Below are positions 4,618 through 63,229 of a stretch of DNA of 64,000 bases, piece after piece (positions within the stretch are counted from its first letter, which is position 1; each line of letters opens with the position of its first letter). The translations under genes and the position numbers were made by a program. The notes under the pieces are model-generated. The model was given only the letters and a program-made list of their open reading frames with translations. It was not told the DNA's origin and ran no database searches. This DNA comes from an uncultured Victivallaceae bacterium (GTDB lineage: Bacteria; Verrucomicrobiota; Lentisphaeria; Victivallales; GWF2-50-93). The stretch spans positions 62 through 64,061 of the forward strand of contig CAZWRV010000030.1 in the NCBI GenBank assembly GCA_964636325.1. Direction: 5' to 3'.

Positions 4618-4772
4618 GTGGCTGTCATCTGCGGAAATCGCAGTTATTTCGATGAGAAACTCCACGGAGGGCGAAGCCGTGCTGAGCCGCGGTTGAGCTC
4701 GGCTCAACCCTCCGGAAGACGACAAAGCCGGCGACAAAACTAACGACAAAGATGTTCACGTTGCAGAGGAGC
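4618..4772 (+). repeat. R2 composite dispersed element, copy 2
   Basis: Module order: CTGCGGAAATCGCAG hairpin, GGAGGGCGAAGCCGTGCTGAGCCGC, GGTTGAGC-TCG-GCTCAACC hairpin, three 12-nt CGACAAAG-type units, then ATGTTCACGTTGCAGAGGAG. It ends 6 nt before the GH36-like gene ATG. Confidence 0.85.
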
Positions 4773-4777
4773 TTTGC

Positions 4778-7210
4778 ATGAAACTAGAATGTGACGGCAA
4801 GAGCGGCATCCGCGTATTGATACCCGGATGGACAGGCTTCCACCTGGAAGGCCTGCGCCCGGCGTTATGCGTCGACGGGAACAGGATTGCCTGCGATGAA
4901 AATGCGGAAGTCAAACGCCGTTCGGACAGATTCGCCGTCACATGGAAACTTGGCCCATGCAGTCTAGAGATGCGTGCGGAAGGCCAAGTCGGCGGCGGCA
5001 CGGTAGTCACTTCCACCCTTATGAACACCGGCGATAGCGAACTCCGCCTGGATGACGTAGCGTTATTGCAGGCTGACTGCTCGTTATCAAGGCCGACGTT
5101 TGGAACCGACCATTCCCGTGTCCGTATACTTGAGCAAGGCAACTACTGGGGGCGTGTTCGGCCGTTGACGCATTCCTCCGCGGTGACTAGCTCCCTCGAC
5201 GCCGCGGAACCGGGCGGAGCGCCGGCCCGGCAGGAGCGCGCCTCGGACCTTGTCTCCGTCGTGTATGACCAGGACAGCCGACAGGCTCTGCTTGTCGGAT
5301 TCCTGGCAAGCGAACGTTGGCTTGGCCGCATCCTGGCGAACACCGGCCTGGACGGCTCGGTTTCCACATGGCGCATCGGTTTCGACGCAGGAGAACTGCT
5401 TGTCGAACCGAATGAAAGGCTTGAACTGGAGCCCATAATTTTTCTGTCCGGATCGGATCCGTGGCGCCTGTTGATTCAATATGCCGAACAAGCGGCCTTG
5501 AGGCACAGGCCCTGCATGCCTGTAGGACAAGTGGTCTCATGGTGCAGCTGGTATCCATACCGCCTGGGAGTGACCGAGGAACGAATCCTGGCGGAAGCGC
5601 GGATCGCCGCCCGGCGGCTGAAACCCCTCGGGCTGAAAATAATCGAAGTGGATCTCGGATGGGAAGAGCGGAACCTGCCATGCTCGTTCACTGAAAACGA
5701 ACGTTTCCCACATGGTCTGAAATGGCTTTCCGAGCGGCTCCAGGAATTTGGTTTTGAACTGGGGGCATGGAAGGCACCCTACACGATTTCCGAGTTCGAC
5801 CCACTGGTGAAAGAGCATCCTGAATGGCTGGTTTCCGACGAGACGGGGAGCCCTCTGGCGTATTGGGAATGGTTCTGGAAGCCGCACGGAAAAGTTCATA
5901 TCCTGGATCTGACGCATCCGGGTGCCCTTCAATGGCTGCGGGAAAAAGTGCAGAGCCTGACCGACCGCGGCGTACGCTACTTGAAGTTCGACTTCATCGG
6001 CTGCGCGGCGGATGGAAAGGCCAAGCGACGGCACAATCCCCGCATCGTAATGGGGGCCGGCACTGAGGCGGCGCGCAAGGCTGCAAGCCTGATCCGGGAA
6101 GCGGCGCCGGAAGCGCTGATCCTCAATTGTGGCGGACCGGAAATGCCGGGCACGGGCCACTGGCCACTGCTTTACGCATGCAACGACACCGGGAACTCAG
6201 GTTTCATCGGCCATGGGACGCAGTCTCTCAATTATGAAGCCGTGGCCTGCCATCTCTTCAAGAACCGCCGCTGGGGGCTCATCCAGCCTTCCTGCCTAGT
6301 GGTCGGCCTTCCCGGAACTGTAGAAGATGCCCGGCTGAGGGCGACAATCGCATTCCTTGCCGGAGGGCAGATCGACATATCAGACACTCTGACCACGCTA
6401 CCGGAGGAGCGCTGGCAGATCCTGACCGCGACGCTGCCGCCCGCGCCCGCCAGCGCCAGGCCGGTAGACTTGTTTGAGCCACTGGCCATGGTCCACTTCG
6501 ACTACGAAGGCACATGCCGCGGACAGCAGGGGCAGGCCCAGATCTTGCGGGAGCATCCTCCGGCGTCGGTCTGGCATCTGCGCATCAACGCCGGATGGGA
6601 CGAATGGGATCTTGTCGGAATTTTCTGCTACAGCCCGGGCAGCTCTTCGCCAAAGCCGGAGATATGCCGCTACGTGATTCCTTTGACAAAGCTTGGAATC
6701 TCCGAAGCGCTGCCGCTTTGGGGCTACGAGTTCTGGTCAGGGCAATTCCTGGGAAATGTCCCCGGCAAGCGGCACAATGCCGACGCCTACGTCCATCCTG
6801 GAGACTATCAGGATCTGAAAGTCGGAGGCACATCTGGCATACTTGATGTGGCATTCTTCGGGCCCTGCGCCAAGCTTATCTGCCTGCGCCGTCCAAAACC
6901 CCATCCTTGGGTGCTGGGCACCTCCTTCCACCAGAGCTGCGGCCTGGAACTTGCAGATGTCGCATGGGATCCGGCGGCGCGGCGCCTAAGCGGCGAACTG
7001 CGGCGCCCCGAAGGCGAATCGGGAACGATAATTTTCTCTTCTGACGGCCATGTCCCATTAAGAGCCGAGGCGGACGGACGGGAGATACCAGTTCGGCCTG
7101 GCGCATCAGGCAGCTATGCCTTGGCGCTCATAGCCGCCCGCTCCCCGCTGGAGTGGGCGGTATTTTTCTCGGAAGACTTATTTGTTTCAAAGACAAAGGA
7201 GGAAATGTGA
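4778..7210 (+). CDS. Glycoside hydrolase, GH36/clan GH-D alpha-galactosidase-like
   Basis: 810-aa ORF. The TIM-barrel region WCSWYPY..IIEVDLGWE and RGVRYLKFDF resembles the K-x-D nucleophile block of melibiase-type enzymes. No signal peptide. GAGGAG Shine-Dalgarno 6 nt upstream. Confidence 0.7.
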   Translation: MKLECDGKSGIRVLIPGWTGFHLEGLRPALCVDGNRIACDENAEVKRRSDRFAVTWKLGPCSLEMRAEGQVGGGTVVTSTLMNTGDSELRLDDVALLQADCSLSRPTFGTDHSRVRILEQGNYWGRVRPLTHSSAVTSSLDAAEPGGAPARQERASDLVSVVYDQDSRQALLVGFLASERWLGRILANTGLDGSVSTWRIGFDAGELLVEPNERLELEPIIFLSGSDPWRLLIQYAEQAALRHRPCMPVGQVVSWCSWYPYRLGVTEERILAEARIAARRLKPLGLKIIEVDLGWEERNLPCSFTENERFPHGLKWLSERLQEFGFELGAWKAPYTISEFDPLVKEHPEWLVSDETGSPLAYWEWFWKPHGKVHILDLTHPGALQWLREKVQSLTDRGVRYLKFDFIGCAADGKAKRRHNPRIVMGAGTEAARKAASLIREAAPEALILNCGGPEMPGTGHWPLLYACNDTGNSGFIGHGTQSLNYEAVACHLFKNRRWGLIQPSCLVVGLPGTVEDARLRATIAFLAGGQIDISDTLTTLPEERWQILTATLPPAPASARPVDLFEPLAMVHFDYEGTCRGQQGQAQILREHPPASVWHLRINAGWDEWDLVGIFCYSPGSSSPKPEICRYVIPLTKLGISEALPLWGYEFWSGQFLGNVPGKRHNADAYVHPGDYQDLKVGGTSGILDVAFFGPCAKLICLRRPKPHPWVLGTSFHQSCGLELADVAWDPAARRLSGELRRPEGESGTIIFSSDGHVPLRAEADGREIPVRPGASGSYALALIAARSPLEWAVFFSEDLFVSKTKEEM

Positions 7211-8542: not shown

Positions 8543-8752
8543 ATGAAGAAGCTCATGCTCCTCACAGCCGTCGCCGTCGCCACCGCCTTCACAGCCGGTA
8601 TCTACGCCGCCGAGGAAAAGGCCGCCGCCAAGTGCGCATGCGGACAGGAATGCACATGCGAGAAGGAGTGCAAGTGCACAGACAAGGACAAGGAATGCAA
8701 GTGCGAGAAGTGCGCTGAGCTCAAGAAGAAGGCCGAGAAGAAGGCTGAATAA
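8543..8752 (+). CDS. Small secreted Cys-rich (CxC) metallothionein-like protein
   Basis: 69 aa with a Sec signal peptide (MKKLMLLTAVAVATAFTAGIYA|AEE). The mature 47 aa carry 9 Cys arranged as CAC, CTC, CKC, CKC and C within a Lys/Glu-rich frame. AAAGGGGAAAAG RBS upstream and a strong terminator directly downstream. Confidence 0.7.
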   Translation: MKKLMLLTAVAVATAFTAGIYAAEEKAAAKCACGQECTCEKECKCTDKDKECKCEKCAELKKKAEKKAE

Positions 8753-8777
8753 GAATCTTCCGATTATCGACATAAAA

Positions 8778-8812
8778 AGACGACGCCTGCACAAGGCGTC
8801 GTCTTTTTTTTT
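8778..8812 (+). terminator. Rho-independent terminator
   Basis: AGACGACGCC-TGCACAA-GGCGTCGTCT: a perfect 10-bp GC-rich stem followed by T8. Confidence 0.8.
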
Positions 8813-8877: not shown

Positions 8878-8916
8878 ATAAATATTCAGTGAAAGGGCGT
8901 AGTTCACTGAATATTT
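8878..8916. repeat. R1 palindromic REP-like element, variant (TAAATATTCAGTGAA-AGGGCGTAG-TTCACTGAATATTTA)
   Basis: Same architecture and the same GGGCGTAG/CTACGCCC centre as the GTATGAATTCAGCAAA copies. Intergenic. Confidence 0.8.
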
Positions 8917-8948
8917 ACCGGCGGATGCCTATTACCCGCAGGAAAAAC

Positions 8949-10394
8949 TTAGTTCTTCCAAAGGGCGTTGAGAGATTTTACAGTCTCCTCGACTAGGACG
9001 TCGCCGGCCTCATGGCCGACCTCGTTGCAGTAGACGCATGCGCTGTAGCCCTGGCCCTCTTCGGCCTCGTCCGTGGGGAGGTAGCATATGTAGTCGTATC
9101 CCGCGCAGAGCTGGACGGTGAACGTCTGGACCGCCGGGCTCCGCGCCTGGATCCTTATCCCGAATTCTGAAAAGCATTCGAACGTATTTGTGGCGAAGGC
9201 GACATCGCCCACTCTGACGACATGCAGCTCCATGGGATAGGCCGTGTTTTCCTTCTGCTTCTCATAGCGTTCCAGAACCCTTCTGCAGCGCACCATCCTG
9301 GAATGGAGGATGGACTCCGACTCAAGATAGCTTTCCGAAACCTTTTTCTTCTCCAGCTCGCGGAGCCCCTTCCTCACCATGTCATATTCCTGCCTGGTCA
9401 CCTTTCTCGCGGGCAGCCTGACGGTCCTGACCAGATGGCCGGTCTCGGCCGAGCTTCTCATATCCTTCATGGCCGGCGGCAGGGCGTCGGCGAAGGCCGC
9501 GCATATCCTGTTTGCGATTTCCTGCCGCGGAGAGAGGCCTTTCAGCTCGAGCATGCGCTTCTCGGCGTTCTTGTTGAAGATGAGGTGGGGCGAGAGATCC
9601 CCGGAAGGGGCGCACTGCGGCAGCAGGAAGAGCTTCTTCCCGTATTTATTCCTGAGGCTCTGCCGGACCTCATGCCAGAAGTCCGCGGACATTTCGTTCA
9701 AGCACTCTGCCTGCTGGGACGGGCACGCGATGTTTACGACGGCGCCGGTAAGCCGTTTCGCAGTGTCGAAGGTGAAGAGGAAATGGGCGCTGTGGTCCGC
9801 ATATCCTTCGATCCCCTTGAATTTCGGATCGTTGGTATTGCCGTACATCCTGGCGTTCCTGTGGATGCTCATGCCCGCATGGTCGAAGTGGCCGGGCCTT
9901 TTGCTCAGATCGTCGGAATACAGGGCCCTTCTGCTGTGGCATGTCACGGCGTAGCCCATGGCCCAGGCGACATGGCCGGGCCTGCGCCCCTTCCAGCTCT
10001 CGGCGGCGGCCTCGGCGACGCGATCCGAGAAGAATTCAGAATATTCGTCCGGAGTCATGACTCCGTCCGGGACGGGCGGATACCATCGTCCCATCATATC
10101 CGGGGCGTCATGGGTATGCGTTGCGCTCAGGATCAGCCTGTCCGCCGGGAAATCTTCCGCGAGCTTCGCAAGCTTCCGCCTCACAAGCTCAAGGACATGA
10201 AGCGGGACATAGCAGGTGTCGCACGAAACCCAGATGAACGATCCGCCGTCCTTCCCCGAAGAGACCGCGAGCGCGGTGACAGTGAGCGGATCGTTCACCT
10301 TCGACGTTATCCGAGAGTGGAACTGCCCGAACAAGTTGACCGTTCTCCCTGGCGTCACATCCCGCGACGCCCAGCCGATTAGAATCTTTTCCAT
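8949..10394 (-). CDS. Hypothetical hydrolase, neutral/alkaline ceramidase N-terminal-domain-like
   Basis: 481 aa. The N-terminus ILIGWASRDVTPG...DPLTVTALAV...SATHTHDAPD follows the pattern I recall for ceramidase-like N-terminal domains (G.A..DITP ... ATHTHSGP). The family call is from memory only. Confidence 0.5.
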   Translation of the reverse strand: MEKILIGWASRDVTPGRTVNLFGQFHSRITSKVNDPLTVTALAVSSGKDGGSFIWVSCDTCYVPLHVLELVRRKLAKLAEDFPADRLILSATHTHDAPDMMGRWYPPVPDGVMTPDEYSEFFSDRVAEAAAESWKGRRPGHVAWAMGYAVTCHSRRALYSDDLSKRPGHFDHAGMSIHRNARMYGNTNDPKFKGIEGYADHSAHFLFTFDTAKRLTGAVVNIACPSQQAECLNEMSADFWHEVRQSLRNKYGKKLFLLPQCAPSGDLSPHLIFNKNAEKRMLELKGLSPRQEIANRICAAFADALPPAMKDMRSSAETGHLVRTVRLPARKVTRQEYDMVRKGLRELEKKKVSESYLESESILHSRMVRCRRVLERYEKQKENTAYPMELHVVRVGDVAFATNTFECFSEFGIRIQARSPAVQTFTVQLCAGYDYICYLPTDEAEEGQGYSACVYCNEVGHEAGDVLVEETVKSLNALWKN

Positions 10395-14597: not shown

Positions 14598-14625
14598 GCT
14601 GAACTTCCTCTTTGTCTTAGCCTGA

Positions 14626-14687
14626 ATTATACATAAACGGTTGCCGTTTATGTATAATCCACTTCTGCGCAAAGAGTTGCGCAGAAG
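14626..14687. repeat. Two adjacent perfect hairpins 3' of trpB
   Basis: ATTATACATAAACGG-TTG-CCGTTTATGTATAAT (15-bp stem) followed by CTTCTGCGC-AAAGAGTT-GCGCAGAAG (9-bp stem). Confidence 0.6.
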
Positions 14688-14774
14688 CCGTGATGTTGGC
14701 AAAATGAAATTTGCCGACAAGCGGAGGTTGCCATGTTTCTCGTTGCAGCGCAACGAGATAGGGGGTGGATTATT

Positions 14775-14823
14775 CACAATTTCCGATTAGGGCACAGGAC
14801 ATATGCCCTAATCGGAAATTGTG
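14775..14823. repeat. 20-bp perfect inverted repeat
   Basis: CACAATTTCCGATTAGGGCA - 9-nt loop - TGCCCTAATCGGAAATTGTG. It is preceded by GGATTATTCACAA, which resembles the CTGAATTATTCACAA arm at 50104. Confidence 0.7.
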
Positions 14824-14896
14824 CAAAATGTTTATGCGCATATTTTGGACTTCGAACGCTCAACGCCGAATGAAGCTGAACAATCGGATTTAACAA

Positions 14897-16667: not shown

Positions 16668-16945
16668 TTATACTCTTTTAGCGTGAAAATTTACATTTTG
16701 ACGAGCAAGATTTGGGATTGGATTTTTTCGTTCCGACCGAGCGGCGACATGAATGTCGTCCGAGGAAGGAACGGAAAAATACGGCCCAAAGAAGCTCGCC
16801 GCAAGGCGGTTGCGGTCTTTCGGTTTTGCTCCGCCCCCTTCGAGAACCTTCGACACCTCGGTATCGGCGATCTCTCAGAATGCGAAGCAAATTCCAAAAT
16901 CCCAGCAATCAAAATGTAAATTTTTCAGCCTATAAGGAGTATATA
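16668..16945 (+). mobile_element. R3 MITE-like element, copy 1 (about 275 bp, about 35-bp terminal inverted repeats, no ORF)
   Basis: Collinear with 34659-34935 at about 85% identity. The ends TATACTCTTTTAGCGTGAAAATTTACATTTTGA and TCAAAATGTAAATTTTTCAGCCTATAAGGAGTATA are inverted repeats of each other. The many short overlapping track ORFs here are not protein-like. Confidence 0.65.
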
Positions 16946-16987
16946 TGTTGAACGATCAACGTTGGATTTTCAAGCTGTCGCGCCCTA

Positions 16988-19094: not shown

Positions 19095-19610
19095 TCAGCT
19101 CTTGATGGCTTTTACAAGCCTTGGGATGACGAGCCACTTGAAGACGCAGCATCCGGGCCTGAACTTGTCCCAGGATGGGAGTTCCGCCTCGAAGCAGACG
19201 ATTGCCGACGTAGGAAGGGCGACCTTCGCCGTATATGAGGTGTCGCCGGAACAGAAGGCGCTGGCGGCCTGCTCCATGCAGGGGTTGTGGCCGACGAGCA
19301 TGACGACATTGATCTCCTGGCTGACCGTCTTCAGCCTTTCGAGCAATGCGTCTGCCCCCTCGGAGTAAAAGCTCTCGTCGAAGGAAATCTTACCTTTGTA
19401 TCCGCAGGTCTCGGCGAGGATCTCCGCGGTCTGCCGGGCGCGCTTCGCCGGCGACGAGATGATAAGCTCCGGGGCCGAGTTGTACGCCATCAGCACCCTG
19501 CCCATCTGCGGCACGTCCTTCAGGCCCCGGGGCGCAAGCGGCCTGTCGAAGTCCGGCACGTTCAGCTCCCTCTCCGACTTGCCGTGGCGCATCAGAAGGA
19601 TGTTCCTCAT
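19095..19610 (-). CDS. sixA: SixA-like phosphohistidine phosphatase (histidine phosphatase superfamily)
   Basis: MRNILLMRHGKSE...RPLAPRG...LVGHNP motifs. The track ORF start (19679) runs into an R1 repeat (MNSANYAPLLNS is repeat-encoded), so the start is set at MRNILL. Confidence 0.8.
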   Translation of the reverse strand: MRNILLMRHGKSERELNVPDFDRPLAPRGLKDVPQMGRVLMAYNSAPELIISSPAKRARQTAEILAETCGYKGKISFDESFYSEGADALLERLKTVSQEINVVMLVGHNPCMEQAASAFCSGDTSYTAKVALPTSAIVCFEAELPSWDKFRPGCCVFKWLVIPRLVKAIKS

Positions 19611-19640
19611 TCCGCCTCCTTTTAATGTTATACGCGGGCT

Positions 19641-19681
19641 GTATGAATTCAGCAAAGGGGCGTAGTTTGCCGAATTCATAC
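19641..19681. repeat. R1 palindromic REP-like element flanked by an 8-bp direct repeat
   Basis: GTATGAATTCAGCAAAGGGGCGTAGTTTGCCGAATTCATAC. CGCGGGCT occurs immediately on both sides (19633-19640 and 19682-19689). Confidence 0.85.
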
Positions 19682-19989
19682 CGCGGGCTTAACTCGCATG
19701 TAATTTAACGGGAGAGGGACACAATTCCACGGCGCGGATGAAGAAATCATCAACTTCAGGATAAATGCGCCCAGGAAGCAAAACATGAGGCACCTGCCTG
19801 GACATATCCGCAAATTCGACCTGAGATTGAAGCGGAACACCAGGCCATTAAAGCCGACTGACTCTTTCCTCCACATGCTTGACCGCGCGGACGCTATTGA
19901 TATTGCCACAATATGCTGTATAGGTTTTGCCACAGAAGCCGAAATACTGTCTTAATACGCAATTTCAAAAACCGTACATGATTTACTTG

Positions 19990-33960: not shown

Positions 33961-34434
33961 ATGAAAAAGCCCCCCGCAGCAGCAAGAATACGTCCAGCCC
34001 GCAAGGGGGAGGCCGAGATCATTTCCCGGATATTGAACAAATACGCCAGGCGCAAGCTGCTCCTGCCAAGGACGGCCGACGACATACTCAGGCACATCTC
34101 CAACTTCTGCGTCGCAGTGTCCGGCGGGGAAATCGTCGGCTGCTGCGCCACAAGGAGCTACGGGAGGGGACTTTTCGAAGTAAGATCCCTGGCCGTAGTC
34201 CCCGGATTCACCGGCCAGGGCATCGGCAGCAGGCTCGTGAAGCACTGCGTCCGCAGAATCGGACGGCAGCCCGGCACCAGGATATTCGCCCTGACCTACA
34301 GGGCCGACCTTTTCAGGCGGCTCGGATTCAGGGACGTGGAAAAGGAGATGTTCCCCGAGAAGATCTGGAGCGACTGCTCCATCTGCCCCAAGCGGTCCCG
34401 CTGCGACGAGGAGGCGTTGCTGCTGGAGATCTGA
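33961..34434 (+). CDS. GNAT-family N-acetyltransferase (ArgA C-terminal-like)
   Basis: 157 aa with the acetyl-CoA-binding motif VVPGFTGQGIGSRLV (Q/RxxGxG/A). Confidence 0.75.
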   Translation: MKKPPAAARIRPARKGEAEIISRILNKYARRKLLLPRTADDILRHISNFCVAVSGGEIVGCCATRSYGRGLFEVRSLAVVPGFTGQGIGSRLVKHCVRRIGRQPGTRIFALTYRADLFRRLGFRDVEKEMFPEKIWSDCSICPKRSRCDEEALLLEI

Positions 34435-34521
34435 ACCTCATGGAACTTCGTTTCGGTTCTCCGTCATTCGTTATCAGCTATTCGCGAACCGTAATCGCCG
34501 TCCGCAAGCGTCCGCCGAAAA

Positions 34522-34560
34522 GTGAATTCAGCGAACTACGCCCTTTTGCTGAATTCATAC
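34522..34560. repeat. R1 palindromic REP-like element
   Basis: GTGAATTCAGCGAACTACGCCCTTTTGCTGAATTCATAC. Confidence 0.85.
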
Positions 34561-34600: not shown

Positions 34601-34655
34601 GCGGACGCCCTCAACCGAGTTTCTGATCAACAAAACTGCGAATCTCGCAGAGCGG
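34601..34655 (-). repeat. R2 element, partial copy (5' arm only)
   Basis: ..GCCCTCAACCGAGTTTCTGATCAACAAAACTGCGAATCTCGCAGAGCGG aligns with 37880-37934 (GCCCTCCATCGAGTTTCTGATCGACAGAACTGCAAATTTCGCAGATGG). Confidence 0.7.
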
Positions 34656-34658
34656 CAT

Positions 34659-34935
34659 TTATACTCATTTGGCGTGGAAATTGACATTTTACGAGCGAGA
34701 TTTGGAATTGGATTTTTTTGTTCCGACCGAGCGGCGACATGAATCTCGTCCGAGGAAGGAACGGAAAAATACGGCCCAAAGATACTCGTCCGCCTTGGCG
34801 GATTGCGGTCTTTCGGTTTTGCCTCGCACCCTTCGAGAGCCTTCGATACCTCGGTATCGGCGGCCTCCCAGAATACGGAGCGATTCCCGAAATCTCCGCA
34901 ATCAAAATGCTCAATTTTCAGCCTAAAGGAGCATA
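34659..34935 (+). mobile_element. R3 MITE-like element, copy 2
   Basis: Collinear with 16668-16945. Terminal inverted repeats TATACTCATTTGGCGTGGAAATTGACATTTTA / TCAAAATGCTCAATTTTCAGCCTAAAGGAGCATAT. Confidence 0.65.
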
Positions 34936-34997
34936 TCTCTGACCCGGGAATATCCAAAAGCCGGCACTCAATACCGCCAGAGGCCGGGATTGGACAT

Positions 34998-37261: not shown

Positions 37262-37353
37262 TTCAGATTTCCGGCGCCCCGCCCTGAAAAACCACAAGGT
37301 TATTCCCCCCCCGTTTCTTGCATTTCCAAAGTAGCGGGTCAGGAAATCTGAAG
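37262..37353. repeat. R4 element (TTCAGATTTCC...GGAAATCTGAAG)
   Basis: About 80% identical to 14897-14987. The mutT stop codon (37339-37341) and its last 4 codons lie inside the right terminal repeat. Confidence 0.75.
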
Positions 37354-37728
37354 CCTGAGGAACTCCCCAAGCGGCCTGTCGGCGGGGACAAGCTCGTCGA
37401 CTTGAAGACCTGCTAACATCACCCATCTCATCCGCTGGCCCTCCTTAGGATGCAGCATGGCCGGATCCGACAGCAGGAAAGTCCGGTAGAAGCATATGAC
37501 GATCGGCCTTTCACTGGTGAGGTTCTGGAACCTGTAGATGCGGTCGGCGACGGCGATTTCGACGCCCAGCTCCTCACGGATCTCCCTGCGAAGGCAGGCC
37601 GCATCGCCCTCATGCGGTTCCCTCTTGCCGCCTGGAAACTCCCAGAAACCCGCCATGTAGGAGCCTTCCGGCCTCGAACATATCAGCACCTCGCCGCCAC
37701 GCCTGAATACGGCGGCGCAGACGTTCAT
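37339..37728 (-). CDS. mutT: NUDIX hydrolase, MutT-type 8-oxo-dGTP diphosphatase
   Basis: Nudix box GGKREPHEGDAACLRREIREELGVEI. ATG at 37728 is preferred over the TTG at 37758. Confidence 0.85.
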   Translation of the reverse strand: MNVCAAVFRRGGEVLICSRPEGSYMAGFWEFPGGKREPHEGDAACLRREIREELGVEIAVADRIYRFQNLTSERPIVICFYRTFLLSDPAMLHPKEGQRMRWVMLAGLQVDELVPADRPLGEFLRLQIS

Positions 37729-37763
37729 TGTCTTAACTTTGCCAACTGTCACGCTCAAATCGC

Positions 37764-37936
37764 CTCCTCTGAAACTCGCCCATCTTTGTCGCGAACTTTG
37801 TCGTTATCTTTGTCGTTATTTTTGTCGTTATTTTTGTCGTCTTCCGAAGGGTTGAGCCAAGCTCAACCGCGGCTCAGCACGGCTTCGCCCTCCATCGAGT
37901 TTCTGATCGACAGAACTGCAAATTTCGCAGATGGCC
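37764..37936 (-). repeat. R2 composite dispersed element, copy 3 (most complete; five 12-nt units)
   Basis: In element orientation: CTGCGAAATTTGCAG hairpin, GATCAGAAACTCGATGGAGGGCGAAGCCGTGCTGAGCCGC, GGTTGAGC-TTG-GCTCAACC, CTTCGGAAGACGAC, (AAAAATAACGAC)x2, AAAGATAACGAC, AAAGTTCGCGAC, AAAGATGGGCGAGTTTCAGAGGAGG. Confidence 0.85.
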
Positions 37937-38084: not shown

Positions 38085-38125
38085 GTATGAATTCAGCAAA
38101 CTACGCCCTTTTGCTGAATTCATAC
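38085..38125. repeat. R1 palindromic REP-like element
   Basis: GTATGAATTCAGCAAACTACGCCCTTTTGCTGAATTCATAC, followed by a partial extra arm GCTGAGTTCAGCA. Confidence 0.85.
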
Positions 38126-38302: not shown

Positions 38303-39184
38303 CTACTCCTTGATCGGCATCTTGCCAGCCTTCTTCATGTCCTCGCAATATTTATCCTTCTGCGAGGAGCTGAGCCACATCAAAAGGCCGTCACCCTCAA
38401 GATCCAAGGCCATGGCATGCGTGCCCTCGGCTGTGAAATCGGCATGCACCATGATACAGTGTAGGCCGATGTCCCAAGGCAGCTCAATGGCTTCGCCTGG
38501 CTTCTTGGGGGCCAGCTCCTGGAAATCTGCGTAGAGGAAGGTCGGAATCTTTTGTTTTTTAGGCGTCTGAAGACGCAGAGTCACAGTCTGCTTTCTCTCG
38601 GACACGAACCAAAACAGGCTGAAGGCCTGGGTTCCGGCCTGCTGCTGTGACACGAAGCAAGGGGGAGGCTCGGCCTTGCCCTTCGCCTTTCCAGCCGCAG
38701 GCGCGCCGGGCTTGCTCTTTGCCTGCGCCTCCAGGAACTTTTCGACGCCCTCGACACCGCCCGGAACCGGAACGGCTGTCAACATCTGCATCGCGATCTC
38801 CTTGCCGTCGTCCTGGTAGACCCAATGCATTGTCTTCTTGCACCACTCCATGAACTTATCGCGAGAGACAGGCGTGTCCGCGGGTGCCACCATGCCGTAG
38901 CCATAACGTATCGGACCGGACTCAAGGCGCTTGTACCAGCTATGGCTGCCGCTGGCCGCGATATACGCCGGAGAAAATGCGCTGCGGTTGTTGGTCTTGA
39001 GCCACTCCTGCATGGCGGGATTATCAATCGCCCCCCAGCAGTTCACCTCGACCGGTGCCGACTCCTCGGCCTTGTCCTTCTTCTTCCCCTTCCCCTCCGC
39101 GGCGTCGATAAGCGGAGAACAAAATATGACAAGGGCAGACAAAACTAATACGGACATCCACATGCTGTGAGCAAATCTCAACAT
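38303..39184 (-). CDS. Secreted hypothetical protein
   Basis: 293 aa with a signal peptide (MWMSVLVLSALVIFCSPLIDA) and Lys-rich linkers. No recognisable family. It ends at a TAG that is followed in frame by 47 coding-like codons (see findings). Confidence 0.7.
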   Translation of the reverse strand: MLRFAHSMWMSVLVLSALVIFCSPLIDAAEGKGKKKDKAEESAPVEVNCWGAIDNPAMQEWLKTNNRSAFSPAYIAASGSHSWYKRLESGPIRYGYGMVAPADTPVSRDKFMEWCKKTMHWVYQDDGKEIAMQMLTAVPVPGGVEGVEKFLEAQAKSKPGAPAAGKAKGKAEPPPCFVSQQQAGTQAFSLFWFVSERKQTVTLRLQTPKKQKIPTFLYADFQELAPKKPGEAIELPWDIGLHCIMVHADFTAEGTHAMALDLEGDGLLMWLSSSQKDKYCEDMKKAGKMPIKE

Positions 39185-39324: not shown

Positions 39325-39365
39325 GTAAATATTCAGTGAACTACGACCTTTCACTGAATATTTAC
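39325..39365. repeat. R1 variant element (GTAAATATTCAGTGAA-CTACGACC-TTTCACTGAATATTTAC)
   Basis: Palindromic, with the same centre as the other R1 copies. Confidence 0.8.
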
Positions 39366-39471: not shown

Positions 39472-39512
39472 GTGTGAGTTCAGCAAAAGGGCGTAGTTTG
39501 CTGAATTCATAC
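39472..39512. repeat. R1 palindromic REP-like element
   Basis: GTGTGAGTTCAGCAAAAGGGCGTAGTTTGCTGAATTCATAC. Confidence 0.8.
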
Positions 39513-39740
39513 CTTGATCGGCTCGCCCGAGTCCAGCTTCTTCTTCACGTCGGTGGTCTCCGACCACGGACACGCCATTTCGACAATCCCAGTGTTGCCG
39601 TCACGCATCATCGAGAGCTTGCCCTCGTCGACCGGACCTCCGTCGCGCTCCGCCTTGGGCTGTCGCGGATAGAAATGCTTGCGCGGCACCCCGGGCGCGA
39701 ACAGACGGAATATTTCAGCCCCGCCTACGAACTTTTCCGC
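39507..39740 (-). pseudogene. Possible 3' remnant of a truncated gene
   Basis: The coding-like frame NFQPKAEKFVGGAEIFRLFAPGVPRKHFYPRQPKAERDGGPVDEGKLSMMRDGNTGIVEMACPWSETTDVKKKLDSGEPIKV* is open from a TAA inside the solo R3 end. Only an internal GTG start is available (track ORF 39507-39689). The stop lies inside an R1 copy. Confidence 0.3.
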
Positions 39741-39764
39741 TTTAGGCTGAAAATTTTACATTTC
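39741..39764. repeat. Solo R3 terminal repeat (inverted orientation)
   Basis: TTTAGGCTGAAAATTTTACATTTC matches the reverse complement of the R3 right ends (AAAATGTAAATTTTTCAGCCTA). Confidence 0.5.
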
Positions 39765-39831
39765 TCTTACGGAGCGACTTGGAAAATCTTTCTGCCGAAA
39801 AGATAGTTTGCACGCGCCGCGCGCAAACTAC

Positions 39832-39872
39832 CTGCGCGCCGCAAGGGCGCATTTTTCCCGCAGGGAAAAACC
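39832..39872 (+). repeat. R5 double-hairpin element
   Basis: CTGCGCGCCGCAAGGGCGCATTTTTCCCGCAGGGAAAAACC is nearly identical to 46983-47023. The hairpins are GCGCC-GCAAG-GGCGC and TTCCC-GCA-GGGAA. Confidence 0.75.
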
Positions 39873-39955
39873 TAGTATCTTACTGGACAATATATAATGC
39901 CACCGCCCTGTGGGGGGATTGAATATATGCAATCTCAGGTAAAGAAAAGATGCCT

Positions 39956-46867: not shown

Positions 46868-46982
46868 CTTTATTTCTCCCTTGATTCTATTCGGTGCAAC
46901 TTGGAAAACGTTTTTATCAAAGTATGCCGCGTTCGCCTGTAGCGGCAGTGGCGACTTTTGCGAAGTCGCCATACTCAAGCTC

Positions 46983-47023
46983 CTGCGCGCCGCAAGGGCG
47001 CCTTTTTCCCGCAGGGAATAACC
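46983..47023 (+). repeat. R5 double-hairpin element
   Basis: CTGCGCGCCGCAAGGGCGCCTTTTTCCCGCAGGGAATAACC. It is preceded by another hairpin, GGCGACTT-TTGCG-AAGTCGCC. Confidence 0.75.
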
Positions 47024-47132
47024 TGGCTTTTTACGGCTAACCGCGCCAATATTTTGGGGCTTCCGCCGGAAATCCGGTATAAGCCTTCCGCGAGCTGCTT
47101 CGTTATCTCTTGTCCGTTATCCGGCATCCCCC

Positions 47133-48044
47133 TCACACTATCCTCGTCCATTTCGGACGAATCTCGCCGAGGAAATTCATAAGCCTTAACCCGTTTGCGT
47201 TCAGCCACTTGCGATGTTCACGGCATTCCGGGACAAGATCCGCCACCTGCTTCCAGAACTCGGAGCCGTGATCGGCCCTTCGGAGATGGGAGAGCTCGTG
47301 CGCCACCACATATTCGCATACCTTCTCCGGCGCCATCACAAGCCTCCAGTTGAGGCTTATCCTGCGGTTCCGCTTCGAGCAGGTCCCCCAGCTAGTGCGA
47401 AGATCCTTCAGCCAGAGCGAGACGCTTCCGCCTGGCGCGGCCGGCTCAAGGCGCAACCATATCTGCCTGATCAGTTCAGCGCTCCGCCTGAAATACCATG
47501 ATGCCAGCATGGAGGCCATAAGGCGTTCCTGCTCCCGGGCGTCAAGACGATCCAGGCCGGACTTGAAGATCGCTATCCGTCCACCGTCTGCCGCCACGGA
47601 ATGCGAAAAGCCGGTCCCCTTCTCCAGGCGGAGCTCCACCATCTCCCCGCGGAATGGGACCATTACCGTCCCTCCTGCGAGAATCGGCGAAAGGCTGATG
47701 CGGCTCCCTCGGTATTCGGCGAGCTTCCTTCGTATCCAGGCGCCGTGGCGCTCAAGGAAGCGGGCCACCTCGCCTTCGCCGCAGCCGCAGGGAACTCTTA
47801 CGCTTACGCCGCCCGCTCCCACTGAGAGCGAAAGCCTTCTGAACCTTGTGTCCCGTAGGTATGAAATTTCGCAGTTGTCGATGTGAAATGTCTCCTGAAA
47901 CTCACATATCTCTGTCGGTATCTTTGTCGCGAACTTTCTCGTCTTCCGGAGGGTTGAGCCAAGCGCCGCGCCGTAGTCCGACGAAGACGGGAGTAAAATG
48001 ATTTCATGGCGGGCTTGCTGAGGCCGCCATGAAATCATCCTCAA
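47133..48044 (-). CDS. YgjP/DUF45-like M48-type zinc metallopeptidase (start uncertain)
   Basis: HELSHL (HExxH) and WGTCS motifs. The family core begins near [21 protein letters not shown]. The N-terminal roughly 45 codons (TTG start) are a translation of an R2 repeat copy. Confidence 0.7.
47891..47972 (-). repeat. R2 composite dispersed element, copy 4 (degenerate, inside the ygjP-like ORF 5' end)
   Basis: In element orientation: GGCGCGGCGCTTGGCTCAACCCTCCGGAAGACGAGAAAGTTCGCGACAAAGATACCGACAGAGATATGTGAGTTTCAGGAGA. The left arm of the GGTTGAGC hairpin is lost. Confidence 0.7.
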
Positions 48045-49519: not shown

Positions 49520-49531
49520 GCTGTTGAATAA

Positions 49532-49571
49532 TAAAAATTCAGCGAGAGGGCGTAGTTCACTGAATATTTAC
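49532..49571. repeat. R1 variant element
   Basis: TAAAAATTCAGCGAGAGGGCGTAGTTCACTGAATATTTAC, flanked by TTGAATA on both sides (49524-49530 and 49573-49579). Confidence 0.7.
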
Positions 49572-49958: not shown

Positions 49959-50103
49959 TTTATAACTACCTGCGAATGAATGAGTTAACTCTCATACTTG
50001 TAGAATCTTGCATACCCCTCCTTTACCCCTGATTTCAGACGTTTTCACGTCCAAAAAGCAAGCATAAAGGAAGCACCATTTTTCCCGCCATACTCCCTCT
50101 AGT

Positions 50104-50156
50104 CTGAATTATTCACAAACTTTTTTACATGCAAAAAACGCTTGTGAATAATTCAG
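50104..50156 (-). terminator. Long hairpin 3' of the hydrolase operon (terminator candidate / repeat)
   Basis: CTGAATTATTCACAA ... TTGTGAATAATTCAG (perfect 15-bp arms) with an inner TTTTTT-ACATGC-AAAAAA palindrome. It lies 9 nt beyond the stop at 50165. Confidence 0.45.
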
Positions 50157-50164
50157 GTTAGTCA

Positions 50165-53100
50165 TCATTCAATGCCGAACTCGAAGAGGCGGTAGTCATG
50201 GCGGCGAACAGGGCAGCTCAATACTCCGTCCTTCCACTCGAACTTGCCGTCGGGATCGTTGGCGCGGCGCTGCTCTACTGGCAGATCATCCGGGTTCTCA
50301 TCGGGCTTCATGTCTGCGACCGCCGACTCGATATTGTCATATGTCCCATTTGATTCGCTCAGTTTCGGCTTCGCGGTCGTCGTCACGTCGTCCCTGAAAT
50401 ATGTCAAAATATCCTGATCGGCCTGCCTTGCTGTGATTTTTGCAGGGGATACGTCTCCGAACCCCATTGCCATAGGATCAAGCTTCACGGAGGCATTGAA
50501 GCGTTCCGCGCCGATGTTGACAAGAATGACAACACATTTCCCAGGACATTTCCATGCCGAAACAAGGAGGTTCTTGTGGGTGTGTGACGCGAGCCCATGA
50601 AGATTCCAGTAGGGGACAAATTCTGTGTCGGGCATGTTGATCCGCGTCTCCTTGAGGACTGATTCGGGAAAGGGGCGAGCGATGTCGTGGACGGCAAGGT
50701 TGGCCGCGTAGGCGCGTTCCTGGCGGAATATCCAAGATTCATACTTCTTCTTCTCTATCGGGCCGGAATACCCGAGCCAGATAGAGGGGATGCCCCACTT
50801 CTCCGAATTCATGAAACGTATTCGGTCCGGAGGCCAGTGGTCGATGAAATCGTCCTGGCTGCAAGGATGGGAATATTTATCCTCGCCGTCCAATATTGAT
50901 GTGAAGAAAGAATGATAGGGGATGAAATACGTATGTGTTGTGTGCGCAGTCAGGCGAGGCGGATAGATTCCATGGCCGACGCAGATCTGGTATGCGCGTT
51001 TTATGCGTTCCCTGAATCCCCTGAACTCAAAGCCAGGCTGGACATGACCGTCGGCAAGCGCATATGTGTGGGGCCCACCTGCCTTGGTGTGCGGACGGTT
51101 CCAGCAGTCATCCATATAAAAACCTTGTATGAATTTGTCCGTATGTTCGATCCATTCGTTCCAAGCCCATGAGATATAGTCCAAGAACTCCGGGGTGTAA
51201 TATAGGTAGTCGTCGACATTCGGATACCCTGGATACCAAGCTTCCGCCCATTCGCGCATCTCTTTTGGAAAACCGACCCAGTTCAAGTCCCAGTAGAGTC
51301 CGGGAACCTTCTCATATTCATCCTGAGCGGGTTCGCGCCCAAGTTCCTTCCGCCATTCCGCCTTGAGCCGTGAAAACAGGATTTTCAACCCTGCCGCTTT
51401 CTTCGTCAACCCTTCGCCGTCAATCCTTCGCCGCACCGCATCCCAGTCATCCTCGGGATAGGCATGAAATACTGTGGATCTGTCTCCTTTCAGGTTGTTG
51501 CCGGTGAAGGTGTCGGGCATTACCCCGCCGCCGCGTCGCCAGTATTTGGTCAACGGGCGGACCGGCACAGGATGGAGGCCGAATTCGAAGGCCCGCAAAT
51601 CGAAGTTAACAGGTTCCGAGATGATGTTCAGCACAAGAGTAACAACTCCGTCCCCGCGTTCAACGCTGACAGCCGCATTCTCAATGCTCTGAGTCCATCC
51701 CTGGTCGTTTTCAGCGAACCATGCCATGCCTCTTTTGTCGCCAACCAGAGACATGTATGGGATGAAGCTGCCGCGAAGTTCTGGCGGACGTTCGACTATC
51801 TTGTCGTCGTTGCTGCGGAAGACAATGCCTGTGCCTTCGGGCACTGTACCAATGTGGACTACTTTCGGATTACGGAAATCACGCTGACCGCTCCACCAGT
51901 GGAACATTCCGGCATTTTCCGACCGGAATGGGATATGCATTGCAAGCCTCCCTATCCGCGCAGTTTTCCCGGCCTCAGCAGCTTTCATGGCCAGGCGGAA
52001 CCAGATCATGCCGTCGAATTCGATGCTCGCCTCGGTTTCGAAACTGACCTCTGCCGCAGAAACAGTTCCGCGCACATCGACTCTTGCCTCCTTTGCCGAG
52101 ACGATCTCGAATTTACCATTCTCCATGGGGAGAGGTTTTCCGTCAAGTAGTATCTTGATCGGACCTCCGAGGATATCTTCGCCTGCAGAGACAATATTCT
52201 CCGGGAGTCCGACGGAACTGAAGACAATCTCGCGCCCCCAGACCCTGACTGTTCGATCCCCGGCCTGAATGGGCGTCCACGGCGGCGGCACTTTGTCCGA
52301 CAATCCAGCCCTGCATTTCCACCATGGCGGCTGTTTGCGGACAATCGCCTGTTCTGCATTACCAATCACCTTGCCGTCGGTATTCTTTACTTCGGCCTTG
52401 AGAACATATTTTGCGAATTCCAGAACCGGCGTCCGGAACTCGACCATGGCCAGCTTGCGATCATTCATTGAAGCTGTTCCTCGGCCGACAGGCTTAGTGT
52501 CGCCTTCCTTGAAAAGCGCGGCCGAAACATAGGCGGCCGAGGCGTAGTCCTTCATGAGAGCTGTGATTTTCACCTTGACCAGGCCGGTCGCACCGTTGCA
52601 GTCAACGTCCATGTCCATATCCGGTAGAGGCAGCAATGGTTTGCGATGATCGCAGATACGCACCAGATTGCGGAGTTCGCTGCGGGAGAGGGCCCGTCGG
52701 TATACCCTGAAGTCATCAATCGCCGAGCGTGGAGCAGGAAGATTCAGCTTGTCCCAATACATCATGGTTCCGAATCTGAGCGCGTCCGGAAGCGACTTGA
52801 GCCACCATTCCGGAACCGGTTTTTCTCCCGTGGTGTTATTGTTCGGATACATCGCGGCCACAATCCGCCATTCTCCATGCGTGGCGTCGAAGTTTAGATC
52901 ATGCTTCTCGCCGTTCACATAGGTTGAGAACAGGCTTTTCTCGTCCCAGGTGATTGTGATGTGCGTCCAAATACCAGGGGTAAGCTGGGCCGGATTGTGC
53001 AGCGTCTCGTTCAAATCCTTGTTGATGTTGAACTCAAGGAGCCAGCCTTTCCGGCTGAAGCGGGAGTAATAAGAATCGTCAGGATAGACACCGTCGATCT

Positions 53101-56481: not shown

Positions 56482-56486
56482 TGGCC

Positions 56487-59400: not shown

Positions 59401-60056
59401 AGGCTTCGGCCATCCAGTGAATCAATGTTCATGCGCTTGAGCTCCACAGCCATTTCGAGCTGCCATGCATCCTCCGTAACATGACATTTGAGCGGTCCTC
59501 CCATCGACCAAAGCGTTTCCGATCCGGGCGTGCCGTTGAAAAACCACATGTCTGTCACAGCGCCCTTGGGATTGGCCATGATCTTATAAAAACCCTTCCC
59601 CTCGAACATTGCATCCTTACGTTCGTTAGTCAGTATCTGCACCTCGACGTGATCCTCGAAAAGCAAAGCTTCACTCTCGTTTTCCTTCACACGTGCCTTG
59701 GGATACGTCCCCTTGGGGTTTGGAGAATGCATCGCCAGATAAAGATATTTGCTGTCGTAGCCGATATACCAGATAACCTGCTGGACTTCCGCAACCATCG
59801 AGAAGGGGCCTACGCCGCCGGTCGACGCAAGGCCGGTGATAGCCGCCGCCCCCCGCCATTCCTCCTGTCCGATCACTCCGTCTATATTCGGCGGCACCTT
59901 CATCTTCGGCGCCAGCAACACGGGATACTCGAATTTTCCGGATTCATCCTCTTCCGCCCAAGCAACTCCCCCCAGGATAATCGCTCCTAAGGCGCAGGTC
60001 ACTATTGGAGTCCAGAAGGCGCATGATGCATCCTTATGCCATCCAAATCTTCTCAT
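56487..60056 (-). CDS. Giant secreted CBM9-like + glycoside-hydrolase-like (DUF4091/GH123-like) protein
   Basis: 1189 aa with a signal peptide and AAGGGGG RBS. N-terminal PNIDGVIGQEEWRGAA...YLYLAMHSPNP...EDHVEVQIL (CBM9/DOMON-like). The C-terminal region is paralogous to 50165-54361. Confidence 0.6.
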   Translation of the reverse strand: MRRFGWHKDASCAFWTPIVTCALGAIILGGVAWAEEDESGKFEYPVLLAPKMKVPPNIDGVIGQEEWRGAAAITGLASTGGVGPFSMVAEVQQVIWYIGYDSKYLYLAMHSPNPKGTYPKARVKENESEALLFEDHVEVQILTNERKDAMFEGKGFYKIMANPKGAVTDMWFFNGTPGSETLWSMGGPLKCHVTEDAWQLEMAVELKRMNIDSLDGRSLVMQLVRADESGGFYFAGLVPGCWTEWKRFARVDFAPDAPVFRYTKTGEVMDGMLDTMISVAGGSKPAEAFIEVSVENAEGKNIFRENRTLKLNPGESAEAHFKKTGIPITQITQKDSKRNWMEIKALSGNTVLYHNRQPFVALNGSYRTEYLVKWLAGRPQSGAWESHLAYLPYSGKAEAGVDLDFFGVPAEIQAAASFKVAIRPVNGWFRSTLAFGAAPIRDRTGSLLLDVPSLDDGDYEAVFQLLDSEGGRIAEQTSKFERRHYPFEHNTLGINEEVIPPFSPIAVKDRRLSVWGRSYLVGKGGLLDGISARMPTGQRGLEAGLLASPMRLLLKTDNKMVAAADAEVKFPCVAAHAVEIAGSQKLGDIRADISGTLEYDGWYGVKLTLTPEKHLVVESLDLLLELADIPADTLYIQRNGDSWAGNRFGAIPSSPGLFFESTELAAYCDRGKDWLSFVPVSYVGSGDRGLWFFAWSDAGWELRAEQPMMCLERLENGQVRMTVRLLAGPVTVDKPRNLRFAFQAAPMKPNNPRYRTLVQEGGIAHATPGYRTYGDSVDGYALHDERDFTALRRHLLYGTKYPEITAGNMNIFHERFRNANRIVLYGSTFMGGVGAPEHKTFGGEWLGRSDWKPRPDPSYANQLNDGGTIKWTSEEQLTPWWYNWTASYNDFFIWYHKPLMEKCGINGTWWDNASIGTIREYNPETGHMELSFNLWQRRQLLKRLNHLGWELMRPPFWTSNMHCSDMSFNQMAWQIENLWFSSNADYTSFDVWSLDQYRALTRTKTTMLVPKPSYGGFFRSWEKHPDPSRGLKIGRSLAAIQLLHDIVPIVDYTNINSFLYPLRRRLDALVDLPDCIRCLFTGYWNSTAFITPPDADIKVSFYSNTATLSTAVIFGNISRKDLSLEGTVLDVNKIISGHPLPDAPRKIKRIYDLETERDVAVAAQDGKWRINQVLVVPWHEYVVLAIEAE

Positions 60057-60437
60057 GTTTCCCCCTTTCTTTATTTAATATCCTAAGGCGGGCTTCGCCC
60101 GCAACCCAAAATTCAATGAATTCCATAGACACATGCATGCTTTTGTGATAGAAGTTTTTAAGAAAGTATCCTAATTTCTTTGGCAATGAATCATATGAGT
60201 GCCCTCGCATAATCTGCCCCGTCAAATAAAGATTTTCTTTGATGGCTTGGACAAGGCCTCGGGATGCCGTAGAATCATACCGGACCGGAAGCCAAGCCCA
60301 AGCGAGAGCATGATTCAATAAGCTATGGAATCCGATCATAAACGCCACCTTTTTCCACTGCCTACGTTCAAATCAGGCATGGCATATTGCTTTTGGCATC
60401 CCAAGGATTAAACTCACTGTATTCAAAGATGCTTGAT

Positions 60438-63172: not shown

Positions 63173-63200
63173 GGCGGTGAAAACCTCCCTTTTTCCATTT

Positions 63201-63229
63201 ATTGTAGCATTATGTTTACAAATTGTCAA
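63201..63229 (-). promoter_or_regulatory. Near-consensus sigma-70 promoter of the GntR/SBP regulator
   Basis: On the minus strand: TTGACA - 17 nt (ATTTGTAAACATAATGC) - TACAAT, then a roughly 22-nt leader with GGGAGG before the ATG at 63172. Confidence 0.6.

Follow-up and report, generated by a model that had tools for sequence, protein, structure and literature searches.

The described elements closest to the repeat reported here are the repetitive extragenic palindromes (REPs) of Enterobacteria, Pseudomonas and Stenotrophomonas, the hairpins that REPs form (REPINs) and the REP-associated tyrosine transposases (RAYTs). Known REPs are G+C-rich imperfect palindromes of approximately 20-35 nucleotides whose 5' foot carries GT(A/G)G (table in PMC2817692). 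REPIN hairpins have conserved ends and commonly show compensatory changes (PMC3116915), and RAYTs are mostly encoded by single-copy genes elsewhere in the genome (PMC5581495). Enzymes of the insertion sequence (IS) type IS200/IS605 read stem-loops; these Y1 transposases are described as acting without terminal inverted repeats and without larger target-site duplications (PMC2817692). Here we describe R1, a 41-bp palindrome with eight copies in a stretch of 64,000 nucleotides ('the window'; all coordinates are window positions). The window comes from the core chromosome of a bacterium of the order Victivallales, in the Lentisphaerota; this phylum is not named in the RAYT surveys consulted (PMC5581495). 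R1 is a REP in the broad sense, and fails as a RAYT-type REP, as a miniature inverted-repeat transposable element (MITE), as an intrinsic terminator and as an Rfam family. The evidence so far marks it as a feature of an ordinary kind. Our preferred reading, to which we give a probability of about one half, is that R1 is a lineage-specific, non-autonomous, REP-like dispersed hairpin repeat of this Victivallales chromosome that is copied in trans.

R1 resembles the REP/REPIN-RAYT systems in being short, extragenic, hairpin-forming and multicopy, and in occurring in both orientations. As with REPs and REPINs, its sequence is species- or lineage-specific, compensatory changes keep the hairpin, a GTAG/CTAC tetranucleotide is held single-stranded beside the stem, and the enzyme, if there is one, would be expected to be encoded by a single gene elsewhere in the genome. 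It also occurs in mosaics with other short motifs, as do bacterial interspersed mosaic elements (BIMEs). Unlike that of known REPs, however, the 16-bp stem is perfect and A+T-rich, and GTAG lies within a conserved 9-nucleotide loop; the flanks share no conserved tetranucleotide that could correspond to the head of a RAYT-type REP. Unlike REPINs, R1 occurs mostly as singlets (one inverted pair, 39325 and 39472, and six single copies), although eight copies are too few for a judgement. It further differs from REP/RAYT systems in that one copy has an 8-bp flanking duplication and no RAYT is encoded in the window.

Other systems offer partial parallels. R1 shares with bacterial MITEs (Correia, ERIC and IS-derived elements) its terminal inverted repeats (the two 16-bp arms), its non-coding, intergenic and hairpin-capable nature and, at one copy, a clean flanking direct repeat. 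In MITEs, most copies are flanked by a target-site duplication of constant length; such a duplication is seen at one of seven complete R1 copies. In addition, R1 has no known parent IS and the covariation of its arms argues for pairing rather than for transposase binding. The subterminal hairpins of IS200/IS605 elements are read by Y1 enzymes as single-stranded DNA and, as proposed here for R1, need no terminal inverted repeats and no large duplication. Those hairpins are imperfect, lie at both ends of a gene-carrying element and have fixed cleavage tetranucleotides, whereas R1 is a free-standing perfect palindrome. Finally, the HUH initiator RepB of pMV158 nicks the 9-mer TACTACG/AC in the loop of a hairpin (PMC1851628). 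This hairpin, IR-I of the double-strand origin (PMC1851628), is like R1 a stem with a conserved nonamer-sized loop, and R1 carries A-ACTACG-CCC across its arm-loop junction, where the loop and its 5' neighbour read ACTACG, the core of the pMV158 nonamer. This match was noticed post hoc and is a lead only; the six-base identity may be due to chance. Unlike IR-I, R1 is a dispersed chromosomal repeat rather than a single origin, and is accompanied neither by a Rep gene nor by nearby binding iterons.

Copies of R1 in the window

Both strands were searched. The R1 consensus pattern, with up to three mismatches, matched at 19641, 38085 and 39472, where none was expected (100 shuffles). Arm and centre searches together with a hairpin scan added 8878, 34520, 39325, 49531 and a truncated copy at 63973. 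A covariance model was trained on the seven complete copies and the whole window was scanned with filters off; it recovered these seven at 61-70 bits and the truncated copy as a partial match, and revealed no further diverged copy above noise in the window. The total is eight (seven complete, one truncated at the end of the window), or approximately one per 8 kb:

8878 to 8918, minus strand: variant-arm copy; 66.6 bits; arms ATAAATATTCAGTGAA and TTCACTGAATATTTAC, with one terminal mismatch; plus-strand centre AGGGCGTAG
19641 to 19681, minus strand: canonical-arm copy, the focus of the finding; 65.6 bits; plus-strand centre GGGGCGTAG; two substitutions, one an arm mismatch (G-T on the minus strand) and one a loop change
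34520 to 34560, plus strand: canonical-arm copy; 61.8 bits; centre CTACGCCCT; outer left arm degenerate (AAGTGAATTCAGCGAA)
38085 to 38125, plus strand: copy identical to the consensus (0 mismatches); 70.5 bits; arms paired at 16/16 positions; centre CTACGCCCT
39325 to 39365, plus strand: variant-arm copy with perfect arms; 65.6 bits; centre CTACGACCT
39472 to 39512, minus strand: canonical-arm copy; 65.4 bits; plus-strand centre AGGGCGTAG; two arm mismatches
49531 to 49571, minus strand: decayed copy with hybrid arms; 61.5 bits; hairpin barely stable
63973 to 64000, plus strand: canonical-arm copy cut by the window end; partial match of 17.6 bits; left arm, centre and the first 3 bases of the right arm retained

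A first-pass annotation of this DNA, made from the letters alone, had reported a 41-bp palindromic, REP-like repeat family. The family is indeed present far above chance expectation, and the label holds in its broad sense: R1 is a short palindromic unit, repeated (eight copies in 64 kb, with 0 expected) and strictly extragenic. The subfamily with variant arms was also confirmed at 8878, 39325 and 49531, as was the occurrence of the asymmetric centre in both orientations (4:4 on the plus strand). The count given was nine, but eight copies were found, and eight is also the number in the annotation's own list. Its positions were correct in general apart from two starts, which lie at 34520 and 49531 rather than at 34522 and 49532.

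R1 contains GAATTC, and an assembly or adapter artefact was therefore considered. This can be ruled out, since the sequence of the 19641 copy is identical in three independent assemblies (including L082 and L083); the family also has variants and is confined to intergenic DNA.

Arms, centre and hairpin

The unit consists of a 16-bp arm, an asymmetric centre of 9 nucleotides and a second 16-bp arm. On the plus strand the centre is of the form CTACGCCCT in four copies and of the complementary form AGGGCGTAG in the other four. When the copies are oriented by the centre CTACGCCCT, two types of arm can be distinguished: a canonical type, GTATGAATTCAGCAAA (38085, 19641, 34520, 39472 and 63973), and a variant type, GTAAATATTCAGTGAA (39325, 8878 and 49531). 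These differ at five of the 16 stem positions, and all five are changed on both arms with pairing kept. Overall, 94.6% of the stem cells are paired, compared with 29-46% when the partners are slid by one to three columns. The arms are 88-100% complementary in six copies and perfectly so in 38085 and 39325. The centre is common to both subfamilies apart from two single substitutions. Within each arm type, arms and centre are substituted at similar rates, as would be expected of neutral decay after insertion.

Folded as single-stranded DNA, six copies give hairpins of -9.8 to -17.2 kcal/mol (z -3.4 to -7.3), among them 38085 (-15.3 kcal/mol, z -6.3) and 39325 (-13.4 kcal/mol, z -6.4); that of 49531 has decayed to -4 kcal/mol (z -0.8). 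The copies have a G+C content of 32-44%, compared with 56.7% for the window.

Because each of the five stem changes is mirrored on the other arm, the folded strand appears to be the relevant unit. Compensated changes of this sort point either to selection on pairing or to regeneration of one arm from the other. They do not point to selection for a single transposase acting on two ends, since a second change on the other end restores no binding. To judge from the sequence, a base-paired hairpin would fit the changes better than would a pair of transposase-binding ends. The presence of one and the same centre in both arm types also argues against two independent IS-derived origins.

The direct repeat at 19641

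The copy at 19641-19681 reads GTATGAATTCAGCAAA-GGGGCGTAG-TTTGCCGAATTCATAC, with CGCGGGCT directly on each side:

19633 to 19640, no strand assigned: left copy of the direct repeat CGCGGGCT; exact, abuts R1
19682 to 19689, no strand assigned: right copy of the direct repeat CGCGGGCT; exact, abuts R1 and overlaps a small hairpin, GCGGGCTTAACTCGC, at 19683-19697

Three independent assemblies contain the CGCGGGCT pair. When a 41-bp interval was placed at random 20,000 times, an exact-boundary direct repeat of at least 8 bp never occurred and, with seven copies tested, the chance of finding such a repeat is approximately 1e-4. The repeat noted in the first-pass annotation is consequently exact and real. 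It was also said to be a direct repeat and not an extension of the palindrome; the former is correct, but CGCGGGCT is half self-complementary and extends the palindrome as well (81% over 26-nucleotide arms).

The duplication does not prove to be a property of the family. An exact-boundary direct repeat occurs at one of the seven complete copies in the window and at none of the other six. The consensus copy 38085 has only TGAGT, offset by 3, and 49531 has the 7-bp TTGAATA on both sides, offset by 1 (p approximately 0.004 per copy). The flank repeats of the other four complete copies (including 8878) are 2-4 bp at most, which is routine in random placements. The offset repeats at 38085 and 49531 resemble the R1 arm itself (TGCTGAGTTCA, TTGAATAT) and may be partial copies of it. 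A transposase that makes duplications should mark the best-preserved copies most clearly; the consensus copy 38085 and the perfect-arm copy 39325 have no exact-boundary repeat, and the only marked copy, 19641, has two substitutions.

Nor can the duplication be taken as the mark of a RAYT-like insertion, as had been suggested. That suggestion is internally inconsistent, because IS200/IS605-type enzymes, RAYTs included, are described as making no such duplications (PMC2817692). The CGCGGGCT duplication would seem to be a real peculiarity of one locus rather than a signature of the insertion chemistry of R1. It may have arisen by an occasional staggered-break insertion, by local slippage or, if R1 is a MITE, as a true target-site duplication.

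Genomic setting of the copies

The window encodes purL, rpoD, gyrA, argG, dxr, accA and folP, together with two-component systems, glycoside hydrolases and DUF1559-type proteins. Among its approximately 40 genes, none was identified as encoding a transposase, an integrase or an HUH protein (Pfam on 40 open reading frames (ORFs)). Coding sequence makes up 84% of the window (38 genes counted), leaving approximately 16% non-coding, and all eight R1 copies lie outside the 38 counted genes (p approximately 4e-7).

Positions relative to genes are varied. The 8878 copy lies between convergent genes, 30 bp past the stop of 8949..10394 (minus strand) and 124 bp past that of a small gene, 8544..8753 (plus strand). 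The 19641 copy is 30 bp upstream of the start codon of a His_Phos_1 (SixA-like) gene, 19095..19610 (minus strand), and 378 bp from a response-regulator gene starting at 20060 (plus strand). The 34520 copy follows the stop of a GNAT gene (33961..34434, plus strand) by 85 bp. The 39325 copy is 140 bp upstream of the gene 38303..39184 (minus strand); it and the 39472 copy are mutually inverted, 147 bp from start to start. The 39472 copy overlaps only the stop codon of a 60-amino-acid ORF (39507..39689, minus strand), whose TGA is provided by the terminal GTATGA of the copy. The 49531 copy is 11 bp upstream of the start of the rpoD ORF (49519) and just downstream of a minus-strand promoter-like site. 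Copies 38085, 39325 and 63973 occupy longer intergenic spacers. R1 thus occupies 3' tails and 5' leaders as well as spacers between convergent genes; it takes either orientation, with no bias relative to the most likely local transcript (approximately 5:3).

The proposal that R1 seeds spurious ORF starts is borne out by the SixA-like phosphatase on the minus strand, where the ORF 19095..19679 starts at an ATG within R1 and gains an in-frame false extension of 23 residues. The protein is called as 194 amino acids in one public assembly and as 171 amino acids in the cluster representative.

Several other features of the window were recorded. The small gene at 8544-8753 (plus strand) encodes a Cys- and Lys-rich protein of 69 amino acids with a signal-peptide-like N-terminus and is followed by a textbook bidirectional terminator at 8772-8810. 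The segment 63233-64000, approximately 770 bp without a convincing ORF or Rfam match, ends in the cut R1 copy near the end of the source contig. A minus-strand block at 50165-63232 has a third-position G+C of 0.54-0.64, compared with 0.7-0.87 in the rest of the window, and holds two GH123-like proteins, one GH20-like protein, one DUF1559/N-methyl protein and a GntR-type regulator. This block may represent a glycan-utilisation locus that was acquired recently or is evolving fast.

Distribution beyond the window

A degenerate R1 pattern, TTCAGYRARCTACGMCCYTTYRCTGAA, had no match in GTDB representatives, JGI metagenomes or IMG/VR. A looser pattern, TTCAGNNNNCTACGCCCNNNNNCTGAA, gave five metagenome matches, none with complementary arms, all of which are due to chance. 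BLAST found no match in plasmids and, in phages, only a weak partial match of 24 nucleotides (E = 0.6) in two Streptococcus phage records. Across 1.39 Mb around purL from 80 related Victivallales species there were no copies, where approximately 170 would be predicted at the density of the window, and R1 is absent beside the orthologous genes of these relatives. A search for proteins that read through R1 (padded 41-column alignment) gave no candidate.

The source organism is on record as a single strain, represented by the window contig and by short identical contigs from SRR12969846 and SRR12976788. Exact-protein look-ups with the two genes flanking 19641 returned only contigs from these two data sets, 100% identical to the window. 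For PurL, the highest identity among 185,579 species representatives is 72%, and the best matches are all to Victivallales or Lentisphaerota metagenome-assembled genomes (MAGs). The closest homologue of the phosphatase adjoining 19641 is 48% identical, and the best match of a DUF1559-like gene, in another MAG (GCA_025360875.1), is 59% identical. As far as sequence comparison can tell, the R1 family is lineage-specific, new as a sequence and ordinary in kind.

Rumen Victivallales MAGs carry a 40-bp palindrome of their own, CTAGTTTCAGTTAAAA-N8-TTTTAACTGAAACTAG, with a variable centre and unrelated to R1. It occurs at corresponding positions flanking a tandem pair of paralogous genes (L074, 3602-4036; L077, 52-266 and 3878-3934; L079, 17-244 and 3906-3963) and, in L074, within a tandem unit of approximately 200 bp. 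Species-specific hairpin repeats seem to be common in Victivallales.

Neighbouring repeats and mosaic spacers

The spacers around R1 copies are full of other short repeats, and the order of the modules varies from locus to locus. For example, the order is R1, module m and b-tail at 34520, and b-tail, module m and R1 at 38085. No paralogous empty site was found within the window; only the left flank of 38085, GGAGGGTTGAG, matches another repeat family, in four copies.

This second dispersed family consists of tandem CTTTGTCG(TTAT) units followed by a hairpin, GGTTGAGC-CAA-GCTCAACC. It occurs at 37765-37933, 4626-4753 (inverted), 1-72 (inverted), 47920-47964 and 34606-34651, and a fragment of this family (GGAGGGTTGAG) borders the R1 copy at 38085. 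In reverse complement, the family immediately precedes a NUDIX-like gene (37339..37729, minus strand), the gene 4778..7210 (plus strand) and a YgjP-like gene (47133.., minus strand), and it looks like a shared leader or promoter module.

A repeat of approximately 280 bp occurs twice, at 16668-16950 and 34659-34945 (approximately 87% identity), with a partial third copy near 39728-39760 (minus strand). It has no consistent ORF and no Rfam match, and its 3' end (AAATGTAAATTTTTCAGCCTA.AAGGAG) recurs upstream of the 60-amino-acid ORF at 39689. This repeat could correspond to a non-coding RNA that has not been classified, to a leader sequence or to a mobile element of larger size. There are also three long A+T-rich palindromes with arms of 18-28 bp (14623-14661, 14767-14829 and 50099-50161), one of them directly after the stop of a GH123-like gene of 1398 amino acids. 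Their arms start with a common motif, TGAATTAT(T/A)CA(C/T)AAA, which is loosely similar to the R1 arm; the palindrome at 50099-50161 scores only 14.5 bits with the R1 model. Finally, a 43-bp direct repeat (95% identity) is shared by two unrelated intergenic regions, at 46982-47024 and 39831-39873.

Interpretation and alternatives

Taken together, the extragenic location, the occurrence in both orientations, the mosaic neighbourhood, the lineage restriction, the lack of a general duplication and the compensated arm changes lead us to prefer a REP-like hairpin copied in trans. The functional unit would be the folded single strand, as extruded DNA or as single-stranded DNA at the replication fork, and not two protein-binding ends. 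A trans-acting enzyme with its gene elsewhere in the genome would recognise hairpin and loop and make the new copies; it would most likely be a nuclease of the Y1/HUH type, as for REP/REPIN-RAYT. Once inserted, copies would drift neutrally, with arms and loop substituted at similar rates. Effects on the host, such as hairpins at the 3' ends of mRNAs, a borrowed stop codon, false ATG starts and the decay of the hairpin beside the rpoD start, would be incidental.

A number of observations weigh against this reading. The window encodes no RAYT, Y1 or HUH gene (Pfam on 40 ORFs), so that, within the approximately 40 genes covered, the mobilising enzyme that the first-pass annotation had proposed to look for was not found. 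The GT(A/G)G that heads a G+C-rich imperfect stem in REPs is out of place, with GTAG inside the loop of R1, and the stem itself is A+T-rich and perfect. There is only one REPIN-like inverted pair, 39325 and 39472, and its members belong to different subfamilies. The covariation of the arm types is a single split, one evolutionary event in seven sequences. The invariance of the loop between subfamilies is no more than suggestive and is not significant alone (the calculated probability that five changes in 25 positions all fall in the 16 arm positions is approximately 0.08). The exact 8-bp repeat at 19641 is of the sort that a DDE transposase, and not a Y1 enzyme, would leave, and two more copies have offset repeats of 5 and 7 bp. 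Movement has never been observed; the three assemblies are identical over the regions that they share.

These flanking repeats are the starting point for an alternative that we consider unlikely, in which R1 is a MITE of minimal form, with 9 bp enclosed by 16-bp terminal inverted repeats, and is moved with an 8-bp stagger by the DDE transposase of an IS located elsewhere, with the CGCGGGCT pair as its target-site duplication. Insertion of this type at 19641 predicts an empty allele, TATACGCGGGCTTAACTCGC. Perfect terminal inverted repeats are what such an element would have, an exact 8-bp repeat abutting the copy was matched by none of the 20,000 random placements, and the repeats at 49531 (7 bp, offset by 1) and 38085 (5 bp, offset by 3) could be added to it. 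Duplications of 8 bp are made by several IS families (IS6, IS66, ISL3, IS256 and IS1595), and the ends of IS66 start with GTAA. Yet six of the seven complete copies lack an exact-boundary repeat, including the two best preserved, while the marked copy has two substitutions; the offset repeats resemble the R1 arm and are perhaps partial arm copies. The five symmetric arm changes restore pairing and would not restore binding to one transposase, and a 9-bp centre common to both subfamilies is unexpected if each came from a different IS. The window encodes no transposase and, at 41 bp, R1 is below the usual size range of MITEs.

Selection by the host could also have kept the hairpin, by whatever means it first spread, as an mRNA 3' stabiliser, as a terminator-like or translation-modulating stem-loop, or as a site for a nucleoid or topology protein, as for REP/BIME. 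Gyrase and DNA polymerase I reportedly bind to REPs, which are also reported to assist Rho-dependent termination (PMC2817692). The hairpin of R1 is stable, with pairing preserved across subfamilies; copies lie 30 and 85 bp past stop codons (8878 and 34520), 11 and 30 bp before start codons (49531 and 19641) and over a stop codon (39472), and the decayed hairpin is that of the copy nearest the rpoD start. We nevertheless hold such a role to be doubtful as an explanation of the family. Orientation relative to transcription is inconsistent (approximately 5:3) and the distance to gene ends is not fixed. No T-tract follows the stem, whereas a canonical intrinsic terminator is found nearby at 8772-8810. 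Transition mismatches divide approximately 6 to 4 between G-U on the sense and on the antisense strand, which is uninformative. No relative has R1, even beside orthologous genes, and near-identical sequence at unrelated loci would still require a copying mechanism. A regulon of double-stranded palindromic operators, bound by a dimeric transcription factor, is very improbable: R1 is palindromic, and two of its copies, 19641 and the one upstream of rpoD and tRNA-Ala (49531), lie in regions with divergent promoters, but a conserved asymmetric centre of 9 nucleotides is unexpected in an operator and half of the copies are downstream of genes or between convergent genes. The genes that flank R1 are unrelated in function (SixA-like phosphatase, rpoD, GNAT and secreted proteins), the arm types differ at 5/16 positions, and the variant arm no longer has the internal TGAATTCA dyad present in the canonical one.

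Further identities were considered and rejected. As an intrinsic (Rho-independent) terminator, R1 has an A+T-rich stem and no T-run after it; a terminator scan reports no R1 copy and does find 8772-8810. The only feature of the window to pass the Rfam gathering score is tRNA-Ala, and the surroundings of two R1 copies gave only generic long-hairpin matches, below threshold, to miRNA precursors of plants and animals. The 9-bp centre is too short for an invertible switch, and the architecture is wrong for a parS or dif-type site.

Significance

With R1, the lineages in which hairpin repeats are abundant come to include a further phylum, Lentisphaerota (order Victivallales). The layout of R1 is unlike that of textbook REPs: a perfect A+T-rich stem and a conserved loop that includes CTAC. 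R1 also marks the intergenic regions of the source lineage as unusually rich in shuffled short repeats. There are also practical consequences for annotation and assembly. R1 explains the disagreement between gene callers at these loci, where its ATG seeds false N-terminal extensions, and it probably breaks contigs when the source organism is assembled; the source contig (64,251 bp) ends within approximately 280 bp of one copy.

A more speculative possibility, which we rate as quite unlikely, is that R1 is acted on by a mobilisation system as yet undescribed in the PVC (Planctomycetes-Verrucomicrobia-Chlamydiae) superphylum. R1 could be copied by HUH nicking of the nonamer loop (CTACG/CCCT), with the second arm regenerated from the first, or could be, at 41 bp and with a duplication of 8 bp, the smallest transposable unit known to make duplications. 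If true, either version would extend the 'domesticated replicator' biology of REP/RAYT-like systems to the Lentisphaerota, with a different hairpin grammar that relies on loop recognition and an A+T-rich perfect stem. Should the full genome show a cognate single-copy HUH gene or many 8-bp duplications, R1 would become a useful comparative case for the copying of repeats.

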